Origin: Pelomicrobium methylotrophicum
GTDB lineage: Bacteria > Pseudomonadota > Gammaproteobacteria > Burkholderiales > UBA6910
NCBI RefSeq assembly: GCF_008014345.1
Contig: NZ_VPFL01000012.1
Location: forward strand, 1 to 24,000
DNA length: 24,000 nucleotides
Reading direction: 5' to 3'
Every line of letters begins with the position of its first letter. Within the stretch, counting starts at the first letter, position 1. The notes beneath the pieces were generated by a model. It saw only the letters and a list, made by a program, of their open reading frames with translations, made no database searches and was not told where the DNA came from. Shown in pieces: positions 700 through 17,914 of this stretch. The translations under genes and the position numbers were made by a program.

Positions 700-808
700 C
701 CCAGTCTATTCGGCAAACCCCCGCTGGGGCGGGAGCTGTCAACCCGGCTTGATGCCGTGCCTGCCTTATTTGCAACTCAGTTTAGCACTGAGCTGCTGGT
801 TCATGGAA

Positions 809-879
809 TGGAGCGGACGGGACTCAACCCGCAACCAACAGGTTGGCGCCTGTTGCTCTCCCAGTTGAGCTACCGCCCC
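809..879 (-). tRNA. tRNA-like gene, non-canonical (possible pseudogene or atypical tRNA)
   Basis: The minus strand from 879 to 809 folds by hand as GGGGCGG TA GCTC AACTGGGA GAGC A ACAGG CGCCAA CCTGT TGGTT GCGGG TTGAGT CCCGT CCGCTCC A. The acceptor stem has 7 bp with G3:U70, and the D arm is canonical. Both the anticodon loop (CGCCAA, + strand 843-848) and the T loop (TTGAGT) have 6 nt instead of 7. No CCA is encoded. Confidence 0.5.
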
Positions 880-958
880 AGCGGACAGCGAATATCCGCC
901 CTCTCGCGCTTGTCAGGCGCACGGATATCAGCTGCTGCGGCTTTCCAGCCTCTACCGC

Positions 959-1165
959 TCAGATTGCTTTCCAGCCGGTGACCATTTGGGCGACCGGACG
1001 GCCGCGGCGGAAGATGGTCTTGCGTGCCACGAGGGCACGCTTGCCCCCGCCTTCGTAGAGGGTCAGGGTTCTTCCCTTGGTTCTGACTTCTCCCGTCTTG
1101 ACGAACGGGCCGGCGAAGAACTTTTGAATGCGGGGAGCGTAGCTTCCCCAGTTGACTGTTTTCAT
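959..1165 (-). CDS. Small hypothetical protein (68 aa), array gene 'a'
   Basis: ATG at 1163-1165 (minus strand) is preceded by AAGGAGG (reverse complement of 1171-1177). It translates MKTVNWGSYAPRIQKFFAGPFVKTGEVRTKGRTLTLYEGGG... The longer track ORF (to 1201) would read through the conserved leader. I recognise no family. Confidence 0.55.
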   Translation of the reverse strand: MKTVNWGSYAPRIQKFFAGPFVKTGEVRTKGRTLTLYEGGGKRALVARKTIFRRGRPVAQMVTGWKAI

Positions 1166-1167
1166 AT

Positions 1168-1232
1168 GGGCCTCCTTGTTGAACCGCCCGGAGAAGCCCA
1201 TCCCCCGTCCGGGGAAGGCTCCCCGGGCGGGG
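1168..1232 (-). promoter_or_regulatory. Conserved leader copy 1: SD-sequestering helix + palindrome P1
   Basis: In minus-strand RNA, GGGCUUCU (reverse complement of 1192-1199) pairs with the SD GGAGGCCC (reverse complement of 1168-1175): 8 bp including 2 G:U. P1 arms are CCCCGTCCGGGGA (1203-1215) and TCCCCGGGCGGGG (1220-1232), with loop AGGC. Confidence 0.6.
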
Positions 1233-1260
1233 TTGACAAAATCCGCGTCGCCGCTAATCT
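1233..1260 (+). promoter_or_regulatory. Sigma70-type promoter for X1 (TTGACA-16-TAATCT)
   Basis: TTGACA at 1233-1238 directly abuts P1. TAATCT is at 1255-1260, and the X1 ATG is 29 nt downstream. The same arrangement recurs at 1705-1732 and 2163-2190. Confidence 0.55.
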
Positions 1261-1288
1261 TCAGTCAGATTAAGCAAGGACGCACAAG

Positions 1289-1498
1289 ATGAAAAAATTT
1301 CAAGTCGTCGAAGGAAAACGCGAAGAGCTCCGTACGGAAGCTCTTTACGCGCTCTTTGACTATCTGCGCTCAGGCGACCAGGCGGCATCGAATCGCTTCG
1401 ATGCGATTGACAAACGCCTAGCTCGCCGAGCGGAGCTCAACGTTGTTGAAATCTCTCAATCTCCCACCGGGAGATCTTTTCCTCCTCGATTGCCCTGA
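1289..1498 (+). CDS. Small protein X1 (69 aa), paralog family MKKFQV(V/I)EG
   Basis: N-terminus MKKFQVVEGKREELRTEALYALF. It aligns with X3 (MKKFQVIEGSRQQMEQKAYEAF), and the DNA differences fall mostly at codon third positions (aaa/aag, caa/cag, gtc/gtt, gga/ggc). An AAGGA motif lies 9 nt upstream. The last 62 nt overlap gene Yb on the opposite strand. Confidence 0.6.
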   Translation: MKKFQVVEGKREELRTEALYALFDYLRSGDQAASNRFDAIDKRLARRAELNVVEISQSPTGRSFPPRLP

Positions 1499-1640
1499 TC
1501 ATCCGCCGGATGTCCCCGGCAAGGTCCCGGTCAGCGCAATTACTCAACTTCGCCTTTGCTTCTTCCAGAGCGAAATCGAGACCTTCATCCGTGGCCCGAT
1601 CGAGCCAACCATAAAAATCTTTCCAGAATTGCTTGTTCAT
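1437..1640 (-). CDS. Small helical protein Yb (67 aa), paralog family with Yc and Yd
   Basis: ATG at 1638-1640 is preceded by GGAGGAACC. It translates MNKQFWKDFYGWLDRATDEGLDFALEEAKAKL...IEEEKISRWEIERFQQR. It aligns without gaps to Yc/Yd over F..WL..A....L...L. Confidence 0.65.
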   Translation of the reverse strand: MNKQFWKDFYGWLDRATDEGLDFALEEAKAKLSNCADRDLAGDIRRMIRAIEEEKISRWEIERFQQR

Positions 1641-1704
1641 GGTTCCTCCGTTGATGCGCCCGAAGGAACCCATCCCCCGTCCGGGGAAGGCTCCCCGGGC
1701 GGGG
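1641..1704 (-). promoter_or_regulatory. Conserved leader copy 2: SD-sequestering helix + palindrome P1
   Basis: GGUUCCUUCG (reverse complement of 1661-1670) pairs with CGGAGGAACC (reverse complement of 1641-1650): 10 bp including 1 G:U, ending at the AUG. P1 arms are 1675-1687 and 1692-1704. Confidence 0.6.
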
Positions 1705-1732
1705 TTGACAAAACAAGCGTCTCCGCTAACCT
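1705..1732 (+). promoter_or_regulatory. Sigma70-type promoter for X2 (TTGACA-16-TAACCT)
   Basis: TTGACA is at 1705-1710, abutting P1. TAACCT is at 1727-1732. Confidence 0.5.
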
Positions 1733-1763
1733 GCATATCATCTATGCAGATCAGGACGACGAA

Positions 1764-1961
1764 ATGAACGAACTGAAGGTTATCGAGGGCGGCCGAAGGA
1801 TCCTGGAAGAAAAGCTGATCAAGCTTCTCTTCACCCCGGGGCCGGTCCCTTCTGACGAGGTCGAAAGGCTGAATGCCCGGCTTTCATCCCGGGCGAACCT
1901 CAAGATCGTTTCCGATCGCCGAGAGCCAGACGGGCCGCAATCTCCTCTTCGAGGAGGCTGA
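1764..1961 (+). CDS. Small protein X2 (65 aa), paralog of X1/X3
   Basis: ATG at 1764 has AGGA 7 nt upstream. It translates MNELKVIEGGRRILEEKLIKLLF...RLNARLSSRANLKIV. It shares the xxLKVIEGGR N-terminus and the RL..R..L segment with X1/X3. The last 62 nt overlap Yc. Confidence 0.5.
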   Translation: MNELKVIEGGRRILEEKLIKLLFTPGPVPSDEVERLNARLSSRANLKIVSDRREPDGPQSPLRGG

Positions 1962-2100
1962 TTCCCAGCCTCAGGTCTCTCAATCCCTCGCTGGATAGTT
2001 TTTTTTCGTGGAGCCTAAACAGCTCCAACCGCTCTTCAAGCTCATTCAGGCTTGCCTTTCCGAGCCAGCGCATGAACGAGCGCAGCACTTCCTTATCCAC
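1900..2100 (-). CDS. Small helical protein Yc (66 aa)
   Basis: GTG at 2098-2100 lies 5 nt after AGGAGG (reverse complement of 2105-2110). It translates VDKEVLRSFMRWLGKASLNELEERLELFRLHEKKL...LLEEEIAARLALGDRKRS. The longer track ORF would translate the palindrome. Confidence 0.6.
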   Translation of the reverse strand: MDKEVLRSFMRWLGKASLNELEERLELFRLHEKKLSSEGLRDLRLGISLLEEEIAARLALGDRKRS

Positions 2101-2162
2101 GGCATCCTCCTGATGCCCGGAGGAAGCCGCTTCCCCGTCCGGGGAAGGCTCCCCGGGCGGGG
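2101..2162 (-). promoter_or_regulatory. Conserved leader copy 3: SD-sequestering helix + palindrome P1
   Basis: GGCUUCCUCC (reverse complement of 2119-2128) pairs with GGAGGAUGCC (reverse complement of 2101-2110): 9 of 10 bp. P1 arms are 2133-2145 and 2150-2162. Confidence 0.6.
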
Positions 2163-2190
2163 TTGACAAAACCGGCGCCGCCGCTAATCT
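2163..2190 (+). promoter_or_regulatory. Sigma70-type promoter for X3 (TTGACA-16-TAATCT)
   Basis: TTGACA is at 2163-2168, abutting P1. TAATCT is at 2185-2190. Confidence 0.55.
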
Positions 2191-2215
2191 GCAACCATCA
2201 GCAGCGGAGACGGGA

Positions 2216-2410
2216 ATGAAGAAATTTCAGGTTATTGAAGGCTCCAGGCAGCAGATGGAACAGAAGGCTTATGAAGCGTTTTTGGAAAATGACTTCAAGA
2301 CCTTTTTTACAATCTGCCGCAGGATGGACAAAAGAGCCCGCCTCAGCGATGTAACCGGCGAAGCTCCTGGCGAGCCGCCAGCTCCTCGCGGATCATCTCC
2401 GCGGCCCTGA
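2216..2410 (+). CDS. Small protein X3 (64 aa), paralog of X1/X2
   Basis: It translates MKKFQVIEGSRQQMEQKAYEAFLEN...MDKRARLSDV. GGAG lies 7 nt upstream. The last 68 nt overlap Yd. Confidence 0.6.
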   Translation: MKKFQVIEGSRQQMEQKAYEAFLENDFKTFFTICRRMDKRARLSDVTGEAPGEPPAPRGSSPRP

Positions 2411-2537
2411 CCAATCCGGCGCGAATTTCTTCGTCGCCTTTCTTGAGGGCCTGCTCGATGGCGGCGAGCTTTTGGAGAAGCTCGTCATCACTGGCCTCGT
2501 TGCAGAAACGGGCCAGCATTTTGATTGCCTCCTTCAT
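2343..2537 (-). CDS. Small helical protein Yd (64 aa)
   Basis: ATG at 2535-2537 is preceded by GGGAGGAAACC. It translates MKEAIKMLARFCNEASDDELLQKLAAIEQALKKGDEE...IREELAARQELRRLHR. Confidence 0.65.
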   Translation of the reverse strand: MKEAIKMLARFCNEASDDELLQKLAAIEQALKKGDEEIRAGLVRAAEMIREELAARQELRRLHR

Positions 2538-2603
2538 GGTTTCCTCCCGACTTTTCCCCGGAGGAAACCGCTTCCCTGTCCGGGGAAGGCTCCCCGGACG
2601 GGG
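2538..2603 (-). promoter_or_regulatory. Conserved leader copy 4: SD-sequestering helix + palindrome P1
   Basis: GGUUUCCUCC (reverse complement of 2560-2569) pairs with GGAGGAAACC (reverse complement of 2538-2547): a perfect 10 bp ending at the AUG. P1 arms are CCCTGTCCGGGGA (2574-2586) and TCCCCGGACGGGG (2591-2603). Confidence 0.65.
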
Positions 2604-2618
2604 TTGAACAAAGGCCGT

Positions 2619-2695
2619 GACGGCTTCCGCCGCTCGGCCCACAAGCCCCGCGCGCGGCGGGGCGGACATTGCCGGGATGACCTCCCGGCAGGGTT
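2619..2695. repeat. 77-nt repeat, copy 1 (identical to 3475-3551)
   Basis: GACGGCTTCCGCCGCTCGGCCCACAAGCCCCGCGCGCGGCGGGGCGGACATTGCCGGGATGACCTCCCGGCAGGGTT. It contains two hairpins: GCCCCGC/GCGGGGC (2645-2663) and GCCGGGA/TCCCGGC (2671-2689). Confidence 0.9.
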
Positions 2696-2747
2696 GAATC
2701 AAGCTCTCCTTTCTGTGCCGTCCGCGCCGGCGTCATAGAAAGGAAAC

Positions 2748-2775
2748 TTGCATCGCGCGAAACGTATGCTAAAGT
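2748..2775 (+). promoter_or_regulatory. Candidate promoter for the basic small ORF (TTGCAT-16-TAAAGT)
   Basis: TTGCAT is at 2748-2753 and TAAAGT at 2770-2775. AAGGAGG at 2789-2795 precedes the ATG at 2802. Confidence 0.45.
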
Positions 2776-2801
2776 CAAGCCATCGAACAAGGAGGCTTTT
2801 C

Positions 2802-2957
2802 ATGATCTCCAAGAGAAAAACGCCAGCCCAAGCAAGGCCGAAAAAGATGCTCCGTCCGGTAGGAAAAACAAAGATTCCGTCGCTTGCAAATGTCAACGAA
2901 GAGCAAAAAGAAATCTTCGTCGAAGCCATTAGAAGAAACAAGAAGATAAAGATTTAG
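2802..2957 (+). CDS. Very basic small protein (51 aa), lower GC than surroundings
   Basis: A strong SD (AAGGAGG) lies 6 nt upstream. It translates MISKRKTPAQARPKKMLRPVGKTKIPSLANVNEEQKEIFVEAIRRNKKIKI. It is convergent with the PemK-like gene. Confidence 0.55.
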   Translation: MISKRKTPAQARPKKMLRPVGKTKIPSLANVNEEQKEIFVEAIRRNKKIKI

Positions 2958-3019
2958 AGCAAACCCCTCGACCCGTCTGCGCGCAATGCGCGGGCGAAGT
3001 CGCGGTGGTCTGCTCCTTT

Positions 3020-3394
3020 TTAGGCGAGCGGGAATCTTACCGCTCTGGCGGCGTTTTCGATCGCCAGTGCCTTCGTGTTGGGGAGCGCTTTGTAACTTCT
3101 CCCCTCCGAAATAACATCCTGGTCAAGAAACGCCACCAGGGATTGTCTCGAGAAACGAAGCACTCCTTCGCCCTCGAGCCCCACCGCCCTCGCCTCGGCA
3201 TCGGTCAGAGTGACTTCGACTTCACCCCTGACTTTTGCGGAGGACGAGAACTTCGCCGCGCCGATGTAAACCACATCCCCTTTCGGGGTTCTGGCGCGGC
3301 CAAGGATGAGGACGGGCCTTATTTTGTACCGCCCGTCTCCTTCTTGAAACGGAACCCTCGCCCTCACGAAGGTCCCTATCGGGACTGCATTCAT
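3020..3394 (-). CDS. PemK/MazF-like toxin-fold protein (124 aa), array gene 'e'
   Basis: ATG at 3392-3394 follows AAGGAGGAGCC. It translates MNAVPIGTFVRARVPFQEGDGRYKIRPVLILGRA...GDVVYIGAAKFSSS. The pattern (G.i..v.fP...g..K.RPvlvl) is typical of PemK/MazF SH3-like toxins. The track ORF extended to 3649 reads through the non-coding repeats. Confidence 0.75.
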   Translation of the reverse strand: MNAVPIGTFVRARVPFQEGDGRYKIRPVLILGRARTPKGDVVYIGAAKFSSSAKVRGEVEVTLTDAEARAVGLEGEGVLRFSRQSLVAFLDQDVISEGRSYKALPNTKALAIENAARAVRFPLA

Positions 3395-3459
3395 GGCTCC
3401 TCCTTTCATTGCCAGGAGGAAGCCTCCCCCGTCCGGGGAAAGGCTTCCACCAGACGGGG
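3395..3459 (-). promoter_or_regulatory. Conserved leader copy 5: SD-sequestering helix + degenerate palindrome P1
   Basis: GGCU(U)CCUCCU (reverse complement of 3414-3424) pairs with AGGAGGAGCC (reverse complement of 3395-3404): 10 bp with one bulge. The outer P1 stem is CCCCGTC (3427-3433) / GACGGGG (3453-3459), and the inner part is imperfect. Confidence 0.6.
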
Positions 3460-3474
3460 TTGAACAACGACCGG

Positions 3475-3551
3475 GACGGCTTCCGCCGCTCGGCCCACAA
3501 GCCCCGCGCGCGGCGGGGCGGACATTGCCGGGATGACCTCCCGGCAGGGTT
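3475..3551. repeat. 77-nt repeat, copy 2 (identical to 2619-2695)
   Basis: 77 of 77 identical by eye. It sits at the same distance from the downstream minus-strand start codon as copy 1 (157 vs 158 nt). Confidence 0.9.
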
Positions 3552-3704
3552 TGTGCCCCGATCTTAACCCCTTCCGCCTTATCGGCCGTCAGGAATGACG
3601 CATTTTCCACCTCATTTTTCGCCGACTTGCGAAGACTTTTCCGTCTCATTCTTTCTCCAGGCGGGCATGCGCCGGCCGATGACCGCGCGCCGGAAGCCCC
3701 GCCG

Positions 3705-3731
3705 TTGACTTTTGGTCTCGCGCGTTAAGAT
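3705..3731 (+). promoter_or_regulatory. Candidate promoter for the 3766-5006 operon (TTGACT-15-TAAGAT)
   Basis: TTGACT is at 3705-3710 and TAAGAT at 3726-3731. The 15-nt spacer is short. Confidence 0.35.
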
Positions 3732-3765
3732 CAATACGGGCGCGTCAAACGAGAAAGGGCAATCG

Positions 3766-3993
3766 ATGGAAATCTTCTACGAGAGCGAAAACCGGATTTC
3801 CGGCGCCGGTTTCGAAATCAGACTGAGAGGCGACCGGTGGTACTGGAGCGTCGCCAAATCCGTCCGGCCAGGCAGCCAGGGCGTCGCCTCTCACCTGGAG
3901 ATCGCAATTACAGAAGTTCGGCGTTGCCTGGGCGAGACAGGCGCATGCGCCGGCGGCAATGTCCGGCGGAACGGTTTGGGCTGGAGATCATGA
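3766..3993 (+). CDS. Hypothetical small protein (75 aa)
   Basis: ATG at 3766 follows GAGAAAGGG. It translates MEIFYESENRISGAGFEIRLRGDRWYWSVAK... Its stop overlaps the next start (ATGA at 3990-3993). Confidence 0.5.
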   Translation: MEIFYESENRISGAGFEIRLRGDRWYWSVAKSVRPGSQGVASHLEIAITEVRRCLGETGACAGGNVRRNGLGWRS

Positions 3994-4205
3994 TACAAAG
4001 CAGATGCAAGTGCGGAGAAGTCGTGCTTGTTGAAACCGGTCGATACGACTTGTGCCGACTGGACGGCAAGCGGCCCCATCATCCCGGAGATGGGCCGAAC
4101 ACGACGAGGTTCCGCTGCAGAAAATGCCTTGGCTGGCTGGCCGAAACCTGCGAGGAGGCGTCTTTTTCGACGGCGCAGGATTGTGGCAACGCATATCAAC
4201 CTTAA
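3990..4205 (+). CDS. Small Cys-rich (zinc-ribbon-like) protein (71 aa)
   Basis: ATGA coupling to the upstream ORF. It translates MIQSRCKCGEVVLVETGRYDLCRLDG...FRCRKCLGWLAETCEE, with a CxC ... CxxC arrangement. Confidence 0.55.
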   Translation: MIQSRCKCGEVVLVETGRYDLCRLDGKRPHHPGDGPNTTRFRCRKCLGWLAETCEEASFSTAQDCGNAYQP

Positions 4206-4329
4206 TTAACTCTCATCCCCGCTCTAACGGGGTAATGCACTCAGACACTTCGTTCGAAGGACATCCATGGGAACCAAAAGGAAAAACCGCTTCGTTTCGG
4301 CCTCTTCCGGCTGCCCTCAAGGGGATTAT

Positions 4330-7535: not shown

Positions 7536-8555
7536 ATGGACGACACAGCAGTTCTACGCCAGAGAAAACGCCTGGAGCGGTTGGCGAAAAGAGGAATAAA
7601 GCGCAGCACTGTCATGGTGCACGATGCCTGTCGCTCTGCGCTGGATGCGCTTCGACCCCACTATATCGATCCATCAAGTGCGCAGGCTCTGCAAAGAGCC
7701 GCCGTAATCGTAAAGAGCGAGACGAGGCTCGTTAACGTAGCGCAGGTCAGGCAACTAAGTCCTTTCCGTTACCCTGGCGGAAAGACATGGCTCGTGCCAG
7801 AGGTAAAAACGTGGTTGCGATCGTTGCCCCGGCGACCGTCGATTTTTCTGGAACCATTTGCTGGAGGCGCGATCGTCGGTCTGACGGTGGCCGCAGAAAG
7901 CATGGCCGGCAAGGTCATACTGTGCGAGCTTGATGATTCAGTTGCAGCTGTCTGGAAAACGCTGATTCACGGAACCGACACGGACGCGAATTGGCTATGT
8001 GATCGGATCCTCAAATTCGAGGTCACGGAAGACAACGTGCGATCATTGCTTGAAAAAAAAGTCAAAAGCGACAGGGAAAGGGCTTTTCAGACCATCGTTC
8101 GAAACCGCATGCAGCGCGGCGGCATCCTGGCTCCAGGCGCTTCTCTGATGAAGTCTGGCGAGAACGGAAGGGGCCTGGGATCGAGGTGGTATCCGGAAAC
8201 GTTGGTTTCCAGAATCAAGGCTATTCGGAACATCAGACACAGAATTGAGTTCCGACACCAGGACGCCTTTGATCTTATCAAAGAATACACTGCCAAGAAC
8301 GATGTCGCCTGGTTTGTGGATCCTCCTTACACGGCCGGCGGAAAGCGAGCTGGAGCGCGCCTCTATACACACACGCAGATAGATCACGACAGACTGTTTC
8401 GGGAGATGTCCTGCACAAAAGGAGATGTATTGATGACTTATGATGATGCGCCCGAAGTCGCGCATCTTGCGGAACGATATGGAATGGGCATTAGAAAAGT
8501 GCCTATGAAAAGCACGCACCACGCGATCATGTACGAACTTCTTTTATCAAAATAG
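7536..8555 (+). CDS. N6-adenine DNA methyltransferase, Dam/D12 class, with ~75-aa N-terminal extension
   Basis: Motifs present: FRYPGGK, EPFAGGA and VDPPYT, in the order typical of Dam-like (alpha group) m6A methyltransferases. The region has lower GC than its flanks. Confidence 0.9.
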   Translation: MDDTAVLRQRKRLERLAKRGIKRSTVMVHDACRSALDALRPHYIDPSSAQALQRAAVIVKSETRLVNVAQVRQLSPFRYPGGKTWLVPEVKTWLRSLPRRPSIFLEPFAGGAIVGLTVAAESMAGKVILCELDDSVAAVWKTLIHGTDTDANWLCDRILKFEVTEDNVRSLLEKKVKSDRERAFQTIVRNRMQRGGILAPGASLMKSGENGRGLGSRWYPETLVSRIKAIRNIRHRIEFRHQDAFDLIKEYTAKNDVAWFVDPPYTAGGKRAGARLYTHTQIDHDRLFREMSCTKGDVLMTYDDAPEVAHLAERYGMGIRKVPMKSTHHAIMYELLLSK

Positions 8556-9506
8556 TTTGATGACCTTCTTACGCTTATTTGAGGCTTTTTCTATCAAGTC
8601 GTTTAGTTGAGACGTGAATCGGTTGGCCGGAATGGGAAGCGCAGCTTCAACGGCTTTGACGGAGCTGATTAGAGTTGTGTAATGCTCATTTACTACCTTT
8701 GCACACTCTCCAGGCCGAAGATCAACAACGAACCAAACTATTTGTGACAAAGCGAGCTTCTCAAGGCGCAGTTCTTCGTCGTTCATGCCGTCGCAGTTTA
8801 CGCTGACCTCCTCGAGTTCAGCCATTTGGCTGCGAACGTATGTATCCACGATGACGGCCAGGTATTTGCCACTGCCCAAGTATGGCGCTTTCAACATCAA
8901 TTGGGGTGACAAACGTTTCGGAACCGAGCTGCGATAATCCGGCCTTCGCCGCGCAACAGGCATTGTCAGTTCTCCGCCGGCTGAGATAATGGCATCGAAT
9001 TCTATTTTCATGTTGCGTCCAGAAAAATAGACGGACTGCGTTTCGACAGCGCACCATCTCTTACGATCAATGTTGTCGACGAGCACAAAGTCGAGGCGCC
9101 CTGCCTTTGCGCCGATGAATTGACTATTTGCCGCCGCATTCTGAAGAAAAGGGACCTCGCGCACCAAATAGACCTCGTCAGAGCCAAGGATGGCTTTCCC
9201 TATGCGCTTGAAAACCTCTGGCTCAAGCAGTCTCGAAGGGCAGAGAGAAACAATGTCTTGCGAAACATTTGGCAGATTGTCGTCAGTCGACTGTGTATAT
9301 AGCGCGATGCTGCATACCCCTCCGTTTTTATTGCACATCATGGGCCTGCCAAACAGTCTCGTGCGATATGGGCATTCGAGATTTGCAACTTTATGCGTTA
9401 GTTTTGCTTTATGAGCGAATTCAAGGCGGTCATTGGCGGTCATGGAGACAATTGGCCTGCCGAACCACTCCGAGATTCCATACTTTATGGCAACCATTTC
9501 TTGCAT
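8547..9506 (-). CDS. Type II restriction endonuclease, NotI-family-like
   Basis: It is convergent with the methyltransferase and overlaps it by 9 nt. The N-terminus reads SEWFG ... CPYRTRLFGRPMMCNKNGGVCSI ... LCPSR, and later ETQSVYFSG. From memory this resembles the NotI Cys cluster and the E.Q...F.G core. It shares the low-GC island. Confidence 0.7.
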   Translation of the reverse strand: MQEMVAIKYGISEWFGRPIVSMTANDRLEFAHKAKLTHKVANLECPYRTRLFGRPMMCNKNGGVCSIALYTQSTDDNLPNVSQDIVSLCPSRLLEPEVFKRIGKAILGSDEVYLVREVPFLQNAAANSQFIGAKAGRLDFVLVDNIDRKRWCAVETQSVYFSGRNMKIEFDAIISAGGELTMPVARRRPDYRSSVPKRLSPQLMLKAPYLGSGKYLAVIVDTYVRSQMAELEEVSVNCDGMNDEELRLEKLALSQIVWFVVDLRPGECAKVVNEHYTTLISSVKAVEAALPIPANRFTSQLNDLIEKASNKRKKVIKLF

Positions 9507-11203: not shown

Positions 11204-11740
11204 ATGGAGATCAGGCCGAATGCGATCCTTACGCGCCGGGTAAGGGGCCTCTATGGCCCGTCAGGCGCCTTGTTTCTCGTCCTTTCGCTGCTTTCGGCGC
11301 CTTTGAGCCTCGTGCTGGACGGCCCGAAGATGCTCGCGCCAGGCGCCGCCGTAGGCCTCCTTATGCTGGGGTGCGGCCTGTGGGCAAGGGCCTACAGCGG
11401 CGGCATTCCGGAATGCATGACGCTGGAAGGCGACAGGCTCAGAATCGTCTGGCCGGACGGGAAAATCGATCTCCTTCCGCTCGATGACCTCATGATTGGA
11501 AAGCGCGGCCTGCTGGCCGGATCCCGCTGGGTGGCTTTCTACGCGAAGTTTCGCGGCAGACCCTATGAGCCGCTGTACGACGCGCAAGCCCTCGGGCCGC
11601 TTTTTCTTCGGGCGCCGGAAGCGGGCGCCGTGGAATTCTTTCTGGAGGGCTTGAAGCGCGGCGCGCTCATGTGCTGGGGGCAAGCGCTCATCTGGACGGG
11701 CGCGGCCGCCGCCATCGCGGCCCGGATGGCCATCCTCTAG
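11204..11740 (+). CDS. Membrane protein (2 N-terminal TM segments, beta-rich middle, C-terminal hydrophobic tail)
   Basis: Hydrophobic segments are ALFLVLSLLSAPLSLVL, AAVGLLMLGCGLWA and a C-terminal ALIWTGAAAAIAARMAIL. It starts 16 nt after the fusion gene. The SD is weak and the start is uncertain. Confidence 0.5.
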   Translation: MEIRPNAILTRRVRGLYGPSGALFLVLSLLSAPLSLVLDGPKMLAPGAAVGLLMLGCGLWARAYSGGIPECMTLEGDRLRIVWPDGKIDLLPLDDLMIGKRGLLAGSRWVAFYAKFRGRPYEPLYDAQALGPLFLRAPEAGAVEFFLEGLKRGALMCWGQALIWTGAAAAIAARMAIL

Positions 11741-15956: not shown

Positions 15957-17015
15957 TCAGGCTCTTGACTCAATTTCCGCTTGCAGTCCTCGATCATCAC
16001 CCCTGCCTCGCTTCAGACCTTCTACGAGCGGCCCCAGATACGCCCCCGCCTTGTACGGGTCCGAATGCCCCGCCCGCTCCACCACCTCCCGCATCGCTAG
16101 CTCAAGAAGCCCCGGATCGTAGCCCCCGCCTCCCTTCACCGGCGCCGGGCGCCCGGTGATCCTCTCGAACATCCGCTGCAGATACTGGTGCCGAAGCCCG
16201 TGGCTCGTCACCTTCAACCCCTCCTCCCGCGAAATCCCCGACCTGCGCACCACGTAGTAGTAACGGTTCCTCCACCCCTCCAGCGTGTACTTCCTCGGAA
16301 TCATCGTCCCGGAGGCCGACACCGCCAGATCCGCCGCTCGCGACAGCACCTCCACCTGCACCACCTCGTCCAGGCTCACCTCCCGGGGACGCCCGCCCTT
16401 GGTGCCATGCTCCACCCGCACCCGCTCCCGCTCCAAGGCTTGCTTGAGCGCCTGCACCGGACGCAGGAGAAAGGACTCCTCCACCCGCAGCCCCAAGGCC
16501 CACTGCAGCTCCAACTGCATCGCCACCACCCGGTCAAGGCGCGACACCCGCTCGATGACATCCAGCGGATCCACCCCCTTGGCCTCCCAACTTTTGTCTT
16601 CCTTCGCATACGAGGTCCGACGAAACGCTTCCGGATCGGAAGCGTACGCCCGGCTTTCCTTCACCATGCCCCGCTTGCCCGCCCAGGCCGCCAGCGTCCG
16701 AAGATAGGAGAGCTTGTTGTCGATGGTGCCCACCGCATCGCCCCTCGCCTCCCACGCGCGCACCAGCGCCCGCACGTGCTCCTCCCGCAGGTTGTAGACC
16801 GATTGCAGCCGGTAGCCGATCTCATGCAGGTCCCGAAAACAGGCACACAGGTTCACAAAGCGCCGGTAGGCGGTCTTGTAGCTCACAGGCTTCTGGGTGA
16901 AACGCTTCTTCGCACTCTCGTGATTGTGCCGCCTGAACAGATCCTCCAGCTCCGCGCGCAACCTGCCCGGCAACCCGTACCTCGCAAGCTCATCTCGATA
17001 GTCCAGCTTGATCAT
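15957..17015 (-). CDS. Tyrosine recombinase/integrase (phage-integrase family)
   Basis: It contains ...ALGLRVEE...GGRPREV...SHGLRHQYLQ...AGHSDPYKAGAYL, which gives the R...HxxR...H...Y catalytic signature. ATG at 17013-17015 lies 5 nt after GGAGG. Confidence 0.85.
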   Translation of the reverse strand: MIKLDYRDELARYGLPGRLRAELEDLFRRHNHESAKKRFTQKPVSYKTAYRRFVNLCACFRDLHEIGYRLQSVYNLREEHVRALVRAWEARGDAVGTIDNKLSYLRTLAAWAGKRGMVKESRAYASDPEAFRRTSYAKEDKSWEAKGVDPLDVIERVSRLDRVVAMQLELQWALGLRVEESFLLRPVQALKQALERERVRVEHGTKGGRPREVSLDEVVQVEVLSRAADLAVSASGTMIPRKYTLEGWRNRYYYVVRRSGISREEGLKVTSHGLRHQYLQRMFERITGRPAPVKGGGGYDPGLLELAMREVVERAGHSDPYKAGAYLGPLVEGLKRGRGDDRGLQAEIESRA

Positions 17016-17914
17016 GTCAGCCTCCAATCACACCCTTGCCCACCGGCGGCACTCCAGGCAGCCGCCACGCCTCCCCTCGCAGTCAGCGACGTTTCGATCC
17101 GGACGGCAGGCATGCGGGGACATGTCCACCGTGCGCATGAAAAGCGCTCCAGCCGGCCTCGACCGGCTGTCGGTCGGCTCATTTGTCAAGCGCCCGCCGT
17201 GAGCGCCATCAATTCCTGAACCGCCGCAGCGGCCTCCCGCGCACTGCCCGACCTCACCCGGCGCAGAGCCCCAATCCATCGGGGACGGCTCAAGCTCGAT
17301 CAGGCGGCCCATCGCACGCCTTGGGCGCGGGATTCAAGATTTCTTCAGTGGCGAGATTTGCTGAAACGTCGCCTCCAGGGCTTAAAAAATCCTTTTGCCC
17401 TCGGAAGCTACGTCGCAACCCTCACCCTTCAGTGTTACTCATTCAGTCTTCCGCCAACGCGATGACGCCTTCTGGGAGATCACCGCGGTCTCCACTCCCA
17501 AGACTGCAGAGCAGGCTTCGCAAGGTGGAAGGCGGAAAACCGATGAGACGCCGCCCTGCAGGCAGCGAGACGATGCCGGGAGACCTCCCGGCGGGGTGAA
17601 ACCTCCGCTGCAAAGCCGAAGATCAGGGTTCGCAGCGCGGGGAAGGGATCCTTGTGATCTGCCGTGACGGTAGCAGATTTTTCTCGGACCGACTCGGCCA
17701 AAAGCGTGCATCGAACCCAACGCTTTCGCCGGGTTCCAGGGCGGCGGATCCAGGAAAATGCGTCTGCCGTGTCCGGTTCTCGCCGCTCTTTCAAGGCGTT
17801 GGGAATTTCCCGGCACGGGGCTGCCGGTTGAGCGCCCATTTTTTGAGGTCCTGTTCTTTTTTGGGCGCCCAGACGGCGATTTGAGACCGGATTATTCGCA
17901 GGAGGTTGACCCGC

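Follow-up and report, generated by a model that had tools for sequence, protein, structure and literature searches.

We analysed the first 24,000 nucleotides of contig NZ_VPFL01000012.1 of Pelomicrobium methylotrophicum, hereafter the window (C3:1-24000; the genome that was searched comprises 3.33 Mb in 65 contigs). The window encodes a DksA/TraR zinc finger protein, a D12 methylase with a NotI-like endonuclease, a DUF4326 protein, a ParM-like actin and a second tyrosine integrase, and five of its minus-strand genes stand behind related structured leaders, which were labelled copies a to e. Within leaders d and e, which precede a 64-aa gene (Yd) and a 124-aa gene that the initial annotation had called PemK-like, a tract of 77 nucleotides (nt) is exactly repeated. 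This text describes the two leaders, the family of leaders of an integrative conjugative element (ICE) to which they belong, and the role that the repeated tract may have in them.

The leaders of Yd and the 124-aa gene

The perfect identity ascribed to the two copies of the tract (Table 1) was confirmed at 77 of 77 positions. The match ends sharply, with zero further identical bases beyond either border; the two copies are spaced by 856 nt, and a repeat finder reports the same pair as 102 nt at 96% identity (family D3). The two hairpins named in the initial annotation, GCCCCGC-GCGCG-GCGGGGC and GCCGGGA-TGACC-TCCCGGC in plus-strand reading, are present, and the tract lies 158 nt (2695 to 2537) and 157 nt (3551 to 3394) from the respective minus-strand start codons, as had been given. 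Because of these unequal distances the reading frame across the tract differs between the leaders of Yd and the 124-aa gene. The description of the tract as non-coding also stands, since the frames differ and the deficit of stop codons across 70 leaders is not frame-specific. The leaders are in frame and open with all five window genes, and two read-through open reading frames (ORFs) translate the tract into mutually unrelated peptides. A coding or leader-peptide reading was rejected: stops are rare in all three frames (17, 29 and 15 of the 70 leaders contain a stop), and thus there is no sign of translation through the leaders.

The tract extends a structured minus-strand leader, as had been proposed. 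The structured leader held up, and the count of four stem-loops did not, because RNAfold gives five in each full leader: hairpins A, B and C of an upstream extension, the hairpin P1, and a helix in which an anti-Shine-Dalgarno (anti-SD) strand pairs with the Shine-Dalgarno (SD) sequence. Hairpin C, the third extension hairpin, carries a GGAA tetraloop and spans the inner border of the 77-nt tract, its 3' arm in copy d lying outside the tract. The full leaders d and e gave z = -5.7 and -4.3 against dinucleotide shuffles, and 0 of 200 shuffles equalled them. The sequence before hairpin A, UUCAACCC, is a shortened form of the motif that precedes P1, and relatives of hairpin A are found in all seven C3-type extensions.

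Between leaders d and e, on the plus strand, lies a 51-aa basic ORF (window 2802-2957) with TTGCAT-N16-TAAAGT and a strong SD sequence. A terminator-like site of the minus strand (2841-2823) lies inside this ORF, and because of it copy d probably needs a transcription start of its own.

Table 1. Coordinates of the leader features, their genes and related modules (window positions unless a contig is named)
Feature	Position	Strand	Basis
77-nt tract copy 1, within extension of Yd leader (copy d)	2619..2695	-	77/77 identity with 3475-3551
77-nt tract copy 2, in leader extension of 124-aa "PemK-like" gene (copy e)	3475..3551	-	same 77/77 identity
Hairpin A, copy d: 8-bp stem, loop GGUCA; UUCAACCC 5' of it	2670..2690	-	RNAfold minimum free energy
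Hairpin B, copy d (GCCCCGC / GCGGGGC)	2645..2663	-	RNAfold
Hairpin C, copy d: two-tier stem, GGAA (GNRA) tetraloop, then UUUGUU	2612..2640	-	RNAfold
P1 hairpin, copy d (core), CAACCCC directly 5'	2574..2603	-	core motif searches, alignment
Anti-SD/SD helix, copy d, stops 1 nt short of start codon (2535-2537)	2538..2569	-	RNAfold, alignment
Yd gene, 64 aa, behind copy d	2343-2537	-	
Hairpin A, copy e	3526..3546	-	RNAfold
Hairpin B, copy e	3501..3519	-	RNAfold
Hairpin C, copy e: GGAA loop, two G.U pairs on sense strand	3469..3495	-	RNAfold
P1 hairpin, copy e	3427..3459	-	RNAfold, core motif search
Anti-SD/SD helix, copy e, then start codon (3392-3394)	3395..3424	-	RNAfold
124-aa gene behind copy e	3020-3394	-	
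Core leader copy a, without A/B/C extension	1163..1245	-	covariance models R1, R2
Core leader copy b, without extension	1638..1719	-	covariance models R1, R2
Core leader copy c, without extension	2098..2177	-	covariance models R1, R2
A/B-type module without P1, upstream of tyrosine-integrase gene	17521..17601	-	R3, 32 bits
Sister modules, G000 (= L027:8422-8543, 11606-11729, 15959-16079)	C7:33422-33543, 36606-36729, 40959-41079	+	

The leader family and its upstream modules

The core common to these leaders consists of a U-rich stretch, the box CAACCCC, P1 and then the anti-SD/SD helix up to the start codon. A search of the whole genome with blastn-short and a regular expression found ten P1/SD-helix cores, every one of them on the minus strand of contig C3. 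The start codons behind them lie at 1165, 1640, 2100, 2537 and 3394 in the window and, for the remaining mapped C3 cores, at 68062, 68677, 71681, 74945 and 86052, and the distance from CAACC to the start codon is 64-70 nt in the ten C3 copies with mapped starts. A covariance model detected an eleventh, weaker core at C3:71163-71242 and, on another contig (C7:28.7-43.3 kb), a further group of about 12 copies that have diverged in sequence and all lie on the plus strand. The copies on C7 and in other genomes have a very different inner P1 stem sequence, and they retain the CAACCCC ... GGGG flanks and the anti-SD/SD helix. Among 151 genomes drawn from the same order, 20 have matches to model R2, typically with 3-15 co-oriented copies on one contig (15 in G033, 8 in G117 and 9 in G139). 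The eight other genomes of the same family gave no leader match, and of 150 genomes sampled across the phylum only about one outside the order had a match. In metagenomes, a 17-mer pattern for P1 matched 120 times, and none of the 80 that were examined as loci scored with R2. The leader unit measures 75-165 nt.

The core is well supported as a structure. In an alignment of 20 leaders from four genomes, which was fitted to the covariance model, 87.7% of the cells are paired and 14 of 21 pairs show compensatory double changes, including nine of the ten SD-helix pairs; 0 of 500 shuffles reached the observed values, and slid partners were paired in 44-63%. The unfitted MAFFT alignment of the ten C3 copies contains seven pairs with double changes. 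Across 73 leaders the SD helix shows 72 G.U cells versus 31 A.C cells, and the sense strand forms the more stable helix in 53 leaders, the complement in 19 (Wilcoxon p = 4e-5). As compared to 599 controls, namely SD-ATG starts taken from long ORFs in the rest of the genome, the -45..+3 regions of eight of the ten C3 leaders fall in the lowest 3%. Covariation, the G.U and stability bias and the structured initiation regions therefore demonstrate that the SD helix is an RNA-level feature.

The leader family belongs to conjugative elements, one ICE holding the C3 cores and a second element the C7 copies, and it stands there before establishment-type genes. On contig C3 a coupling-protein gene lies at 57.4 kb, followed at about 59.8-60.3 kb by a fragment of a TraI_2-type relaxase, and at 91-92.6 kb stands a P4-type integrase (assigned by eye from its N-terminal sequence) that adjoins tRNA-Ser(GCT); the window integrase matches Integrase_1 (PF12835). 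Contig C7 has its own coupling protein, and the leader arrays on C7 and in G033 start directly after tRNA-Asp. Behind the leaders of these two arrays we found ArdC, with Pfam matches to the ArdcN and zincin domains, and, by eye from the translations, SSB, RadC (JAB motif), RecT, a PD-(D/E)XK/YqaJ-type nuclease and a large methylase-helicase, together with small membrane peptides, homologues of the small helical Y proteins of the window, and homologues of the 124-aa protein. Such gene sets, with strictly co-oriented genes, are known from the leading or establishment regions of conjugative elements (PMC11541004).

The name PemK-like is unproven for the 124-aa gene. Its product has no Pfam or PHROG match, a profile of three sequences searched against PDB sequences lists MazF3 at E 0.9-1.4 only, a word-index search for homologues returned the protein itself only, and the AlphaFold model (predicted local distance difference test score, pLDDT, 47) is too low in confidence for use. 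Two other findings concern the gene content of the window. The D12-class adenine methylase is convergent with the NotI-family endonuclease (7536-9506; Pfam E = 4e-38), and the two are a type II restriction-modification pair inside the element. Near the leaders, at 3990-4205 on the plus strand, lies a 71-aa Cys-rich ORF (CxC ... CxxC) whose sole match is PHROG 19024 (E = 9e-12).

Some other features adjoin the leader arrays. A tRNA-like gene at window 808-880 on the minus strand, in which the anticodon loop and the T loop have 6 nt each, is nearly identical by eye to the tRNA-Asp(GUC) at C7:28469-28540, which precedes the second leader array; the two differ by a few single-base indels, one base being missing in the anticodon loop and one in the T loop of the former. 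Its T arm GGGUUGA is the complement of the UCAACCC box of the leaders, which may be coincidence. After the tRNA-Asp at the array heads of C7 and G033 (L027:3560-3700 and L028:11390-11535), a stretch of (T/G)TGACA, a CCCC..GGGG hairpin and TAGATT resembles a promoter whose spacer is too long and contains a hairpin. A HEARO RNA (RF02033, 93.7 bits) lies between two leaders at C7:30194-30430 on the plus strand (L027:5194-5430). On the plus strand of copies a to c, P1 adjoins TTGACA-N16-TAATCT (TAACCT in b) at 1203-1260, 1675-1732 and 2133-2190; these sites read into small paralogous genes (MKKFQV.., from 1289, 1764 and 2216), which converge on the minus-strand Y genes and overlap them by 62-68 nt. 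A strict promoter scan made no call at the TTGACA sites of these three copies.

Of the eleven C3 cores, seven have an upstream extension of the kind that contains the 77-nt tract. It comprises hairpins A, B and C in copies d, e, g and h, and A plus one other hairpin in i, j and k; copy f, like a, b and c, is without extension. Every extension begins with UU(C/A)AACCC, a short form of the box before P1, and ends in a U-rich tract before CAACCCC. All seven fold into the expected hairpins, though d/e and i/j/k are only 48-59% identical, and in a MAFFT alignment of the extensions 97.5% of the cells are paired, versus 35-49% with slid partners. One-sided changes yield G.U pairs on the sense strand, and the loops of all four C3-type hairpins C are GNRA loops on that strand (GGAA in d, e and h, GCGA in g). 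Depending on the copy, hairpin A spans between 14 and 19 bp (hand count). A GGAAAG box recurs 19-31 nt upstream of hairpin A at variable distance. By eye, the spacing in CCGGCAUUGU is unsuitable for a sigma-54 or other promoter, and CsrA-type GGA loops were rejected as they are not kept in the C7 copies.

About 11 further, diverged A/B-type modules were found, all but two of them on the same element and all co-oriented, and each of those checked lies 5' of a gene. Model R3 places A/B modules without P1 directly before SD and AUG at C3:81007-81117 and 85438-85477, and another without P1 at C3:87008-87071. The module upstream of the window integrase gene (15957-17027, minus strand) lies in a structured region of about 500 nt (17089-17700). 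Contigs C59 and C18 contain this region again with 95-98% identity, and C37 the integrase with 97.6%, which indicates a second genomic copy of the integrase-upstream module.

A longer sister module precedes many cores on C7 and in the genomes G033, G117 and G088. It consists, in order, of the GGAAAG box, hairpin W, hairpin X, an A-rich linker, hairpin C, a U-rich tract and then CAACCCC-P1. Hairpin X has a variable 5-bp stem and an invariant loop, UAGCUGG; the A-rich linker contains an invariant CAGC that is able to pair with GCUG of this loop in a possible pseudoknot, the pairs of which are invariant. In an unfitted MAFFT alignment of 14 sister copies, helix X is 100% paired with compensatory changes at all five pairs, hairpin C shows compensatory changes at seven of nine pairs, and the score of the alignment was reached by 0 of 500 shuffles. 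Eight of the 14 hairpins C have GNRA loops by column count, or nine when a misregistered row is read. A search of Rfam gave no match to the sister module. Our results demonstrate that modules upstream of the core can, in this family, be conserved and genuine structures, and because the sister module covaries, A/B/C is, by analogy only, more likely to be a real structure. The C3-type 77-nt tract shows no invariant loop or pseudoknot evidence like that of the sister module. A riboswitch is a ligand-binding aptamer with invariant unpaired nucleotides that is coupled to an expression platform; in the present family the expression platform also occurs without any extension, in copies a, b, c and f.

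The identity of copies d and e is mosaic. They are 77% identical in the core (P1 and SD helix) and 93% identical in the extension including the 77/77 tract, and the chance of 77 consecutive matches at 77% identity is about 2e-9 (0.77^77). The genes downstream of d and e are unrelated and the upstream flanks unalignable. Pairwise identities among C3 cores are 62-87%, and those among extension pairs other than d/e are 48-78%. The recent gene conversion suggested in the initial annotation fits a tract of 100% beside a core of 77%, and from this mosaic we infer recent local gene conversion or segmental copying as the process behind the d/e identity. Local transfer between leaders would explain the 77/77 match better than purifying selection (the strong constraint also suggested in the initial annotation), which is the weaker explanation because the other extension copies are not kept identical. 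Such exchanges appear to recur in the element, since a second exact tract (28/28) is shared by window 17570-17597 and hairpin A of copy i (C3:75035-75062). Upstream modules thus appear to be exchanged or homogenised between neighbouring leaders, and the 77-mer itself would be an ordinary outcome of repeat homogenisation.

The role of the 77-nt tract

The initial annotation had left three options for the tract: a cis-regulatory RNA, a small RNA gene, or a miniature mobile or REP-like (repetitive extragenic palindromic) element. The cis-regulatory RNA fits best, and we consider it moderately probable that the ICE mRNA leader has an optional 5' module acting in cis, of which the tract forms the larger part, with hairpins A and B and the greater share of C. 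As judged from the structure, the helix of a CCUCC-type anti-SD with the SD would lock translation initiation of the next gene. P1 may set or tune this lock or may be the site of a trans-acting factor, by analogy with the switches of the gonococcal genetic island, and the A-B-C module, added before seven of eleven cores, might adjust the block or relieve it. Hairpin A with its UUCAACCC/UUAAACCC flank resembles a shortened CAACCCC-P1 repeat, and hairpin C with its U-rich tail resembles a weak terminator; with its short, interrupted U tract it may have a weak terminator effect. Candidate roles of the module in cis, which would not exclude each other, are a second recognition unit, a fold insulator or 5' stabiliser, and a read-through brake.

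A number of results weigh against this cis-acting leader module. A promoter scan of 900-4300 found 0 sigma-70-type sites, and the terminator scan, in which an intrinsic terminator was a GC-rich stem-loop followed by at least five U in 8 nt, found three other sites and none at A, B, C or P1. P1 has no strand bias (33 versus 36), and in five C3 copies a C.A mismatch of P1 on the sense strand is a G.T pair on the opposite strand. In the extension, total folding energy is slightly better on the antisense strand in six of seven cases, and only one double change was seen, a number equalled by 104 of 500 shuffles. The fold of the extension is thus thermodynamically plausible; its hairpins vary little among the copies, and their covariation stays at the level of the shuffles. 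The 71-aa zinc-finger ORF near the leaders, weighed as a candidate for a Com-like RNA-binding protein, has no Com-family or Pfam match, and PHROG 19024 is of unknown function. Searches for the extension elsewhere gave little: R3 had only weak matches (at most 32 bits) in 150 other genomes of the order; the exact degenerate pattern of hairpin A matched once among 185,579 species genomes, probably by chance and in an actinomycete, and had 0 matches in metagenome contigs; and blastn of the 77-mer against PLSDB plasmids returned nothing. The A/B/C extension therefore appears, as far as searched, to be specific to this element lineage.

A wider form of the same idea is that the leaders constitute an uncatalogued modular RNA regulon of the conjugative elements of this order, with a shared switch in front of almost all establishment or anti-defence genes, interchangeable sensor modules (A/B/C and W/X/C) and one factor, encoded by element or host, or ligand that would unlock the whole set on entry into a new cell, the 77-mer being a sensor module under concerted evolution. 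We put this forward tentatively, as a possibility on the doubtful side.

Two other functions of the tract were weighed, and both seem unlikely to us. The extension could be mainly a transcriptional insulator or attenuator, whose GC hairpins, especially C with its U tail, would stop upstream transcripts while the genes are expressed from their own starts. A GC hairpin and a U-rich tract (tails UUUGUU, UUUUU or UGUCUU) do lie immediately 5' of CAACCCC in every C3 copy, copies a and b have mini-hairpins with GNRA loops before the U-rich tract, X-type copies have a terminator-like hairpin 5' of the element, and EGeRS1 offers a precedent of a modular, orientation-dependent block of read-through (PMC8708921). 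However, the terminator scan was silent at A, B, C and P1, the U tracts are short and interrupted, no U tail follows hairpin A or B, and the modules at C3:81007, 85438 and 87008 stand directly before a start site, with SD and AUG within a few nt at the first two, where termination would abolish expression. An action at the DNA level has a similarly low probability in our estimation. The transferred single strand might fold into sites for priming (single-strand initiation, ssi), an Frpo-like promoter or a protein landing site, or the CAACCC boxes and palindromes might be operators of a repressor encoded by the element, like the TTATCCC heptamers of p576. The co-orientation of all copies in conjugative elements, the missing sense-strand advantage of P1 and of the extension, and the plus-strand hexamers that P1 adjoins in copies a to c would suit such an action, for which repeated operators before establishment genes (PMC6294495) and single-stranded DNA (ssDNA) promoters (PMC11541004) are precedents. 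The extension hairpins, however, carry no -35/-10 hexamers and the promoter scan gave 0 sites, hence they are not Frpo-like; the variable span of hairpin A suits a hairpin and not a dimer operator of fixed spacing; the TCAACCCC 8-mer occurs away from P1 on the relevant strand only once; the core keeps a fixed distance from start codons; and the sense-strand G.U bias of the SD helix, together with the GNRA loops on that strand, favours RNA.

The two remaining options of the initial annotation fared worse. It is improbable that the 77-mer is functionless, that is, a selfish or neutral REP-like repeat or a recombination scar spread by homologous recombination. Perfect identity beside diverged flanks, the other exact 28-mer common to distant modules, the lack of covariation in the extension, and its absence from four of eleven cores and from the other genomes searched are what a neutral repeat would give. 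Against it, the modules keep a constant orientation and position, 5' of a gene and with the same junction to C/P1 or SD, and the hairpins are retained at 48-59% identity to d/e; the copies number only about 13 and are not scattered along the chromosome, and neither terminal repeats nor target duplications were observed. A REP-like or miniature mobile element fits poorly, as the full 77-mer occurs twice only and its relatives, all but two of them on the element, are co-oriented and, where checked, 5' of genes. The initial annotation had held that occurrence at dozens of unrelated intergenic sites would make the tract a generic repeat; the genome search found two full copies. An independent small-RNA gene is the least probable of all, a very slim prospect in our view. 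The stable hairpins and the conservation of the sequence at two sites would agree with it, but no promoter or terminator was flagged around the 77-mer, its border cuts hairpin C, no Rfam match was found, and the tract is always continuous with the leader at a fixed distance from the start codon, while its relatives are fused to a leader or stand directly 5' of SD and start.

Comparison with known systems

Leaders that hide the SD sequence are a known kind, and the present family and its modules are uncatalogued. With Rfam 15, whose families include ROSE thermometers and the known riboswitches and ribozymes, only a tRNA was found in the window at gathering threshold; at E <= 10, window 900-4300 gave two chance matches, and in related loci no match fell on the leaders. 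Weak matches to sbcD and radC reached 18-21 bits as compared to a cut-off of 40, the best being sbcD with 21 bits (E = 0.9) over one P1 in G033. Several other known elements were considered and rejected. REP sequences and bacterial interspersed mosaic elements need dozens to hundreds of dispersed copies in both orientations, mostly at the 3' ends of genes, which is not the distribution found here. The attC sites of integron cassettes are imperfect palindromes, with R'' (RYYYAAC) and R' (GTTRRRY) pairing, located 3' of each cassette. The present leaders have YCAAC before P1 but no inverted GTTG after it, the 3' flank being GGGG and then the anti-SD, and they precede the start codon by a fixed distance. 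Frpo/ssi sites are long ssDNA stem-loops that carry -35/-10 hexamers and an UP element in the stem (PMC11541004), and the hairpins described here are of 5-13 bp, GC-only and without hexamers.

The leaders show the two stem-loops of SD-sequestering leaders, a 3' SD helix and a preceding stem-loop, and the likeness is one of architecture. In the com/mom system of phage Mu, the small zinc-finger protein Com binds a hairpin just 5' of a hairpin that occludes the SD, and the architecture of the leaders fits this scheme. A closer parallel is given by the 5' untranslated regions of traH and parA in the gonococcal genetic island, in which stem-loop SL2 occludes the SD and the start codon (Ramsey et al. 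2015, cited by Callaghan et al. 2021, PMC8716806). There, removal of the inner strands is described to raise translation more than 10-fold and weakening of SL1 to abolish expression (PMC8716806). As in the present leaders, more than one copy occurs per element, and the activator is established in neither system. The lock and the role of SL1 have been shown there by mutagenesis, whereas the present leaders are known from sequence alone. They also differ in having 11-15 copies per element, a position before establishment-type genes, the CAACCCC flank and the optional A/B/C or W/X/C modules.

For the modularity, the nearest precedent is EGeRS1, the establishment gene regulatory sequences of the Gram-positive plasmid pLS20 and its family, which are multi-copy, GC-rich, multi-hairpin regions before establishment operons with ardC and methylase genes (Val-Calvo et al. 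2021, PMC8708921). Only some of the copies include a 5' section of 180 bp, the regions contain no constitutive promoter, and they block read-through in one orientation (PMC8708921). Similar to the present leaders, EGeRS1 copies are 62-95% alike within an element, modular and with internal duplications, and action as RNA or as ssDNA is undecided (PMC8708921). EGeRS1 differs in its length of 400-750 bp, as compared to the 75-165 nt unit that here stands before nearly every gene, its sequence is unrelated, and SD sequestration has not been described for it. STAXI (RF01728), radC (RF01754) and sbcD (RF01757) are candidate structured RNAs (Weinberg et al. 2010, PMC2864571), of which STAXI is located near ssb, anti-restriction, integrase and DNA-handling genes of mobile DNA and has been argued to be RNA or ssDNA from its tetraloops (PMC2864571); the architecture of all three differs from that of the present leaders, and their models gave no match.

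The p576 plasmid carries TTATCCC heptamers, bound by Reg576, before its establishment genes (PMC6294495). Like the leaders described here, they are one conserved signal before many establishment genes, a jointly switched set, but they are double-stranded DNA operators beside clear promoters, whereas the present leaders have hairpins of variable length and an SD helix with no recognisable promoter. Establishment genes, including those for anti-restriction, SSB, recombination and methylase functions, need a brief joint switch-on in the new host. Known solutions are the ssDNA promoters of F-like plasmids, the repressor operators of p576 and the unexplained EGeRS1 of pLS20. With a covarying core and swappable upstream modules, the leaders may be a compact candidate solution at the RNA level in proteobacterial ICEs.

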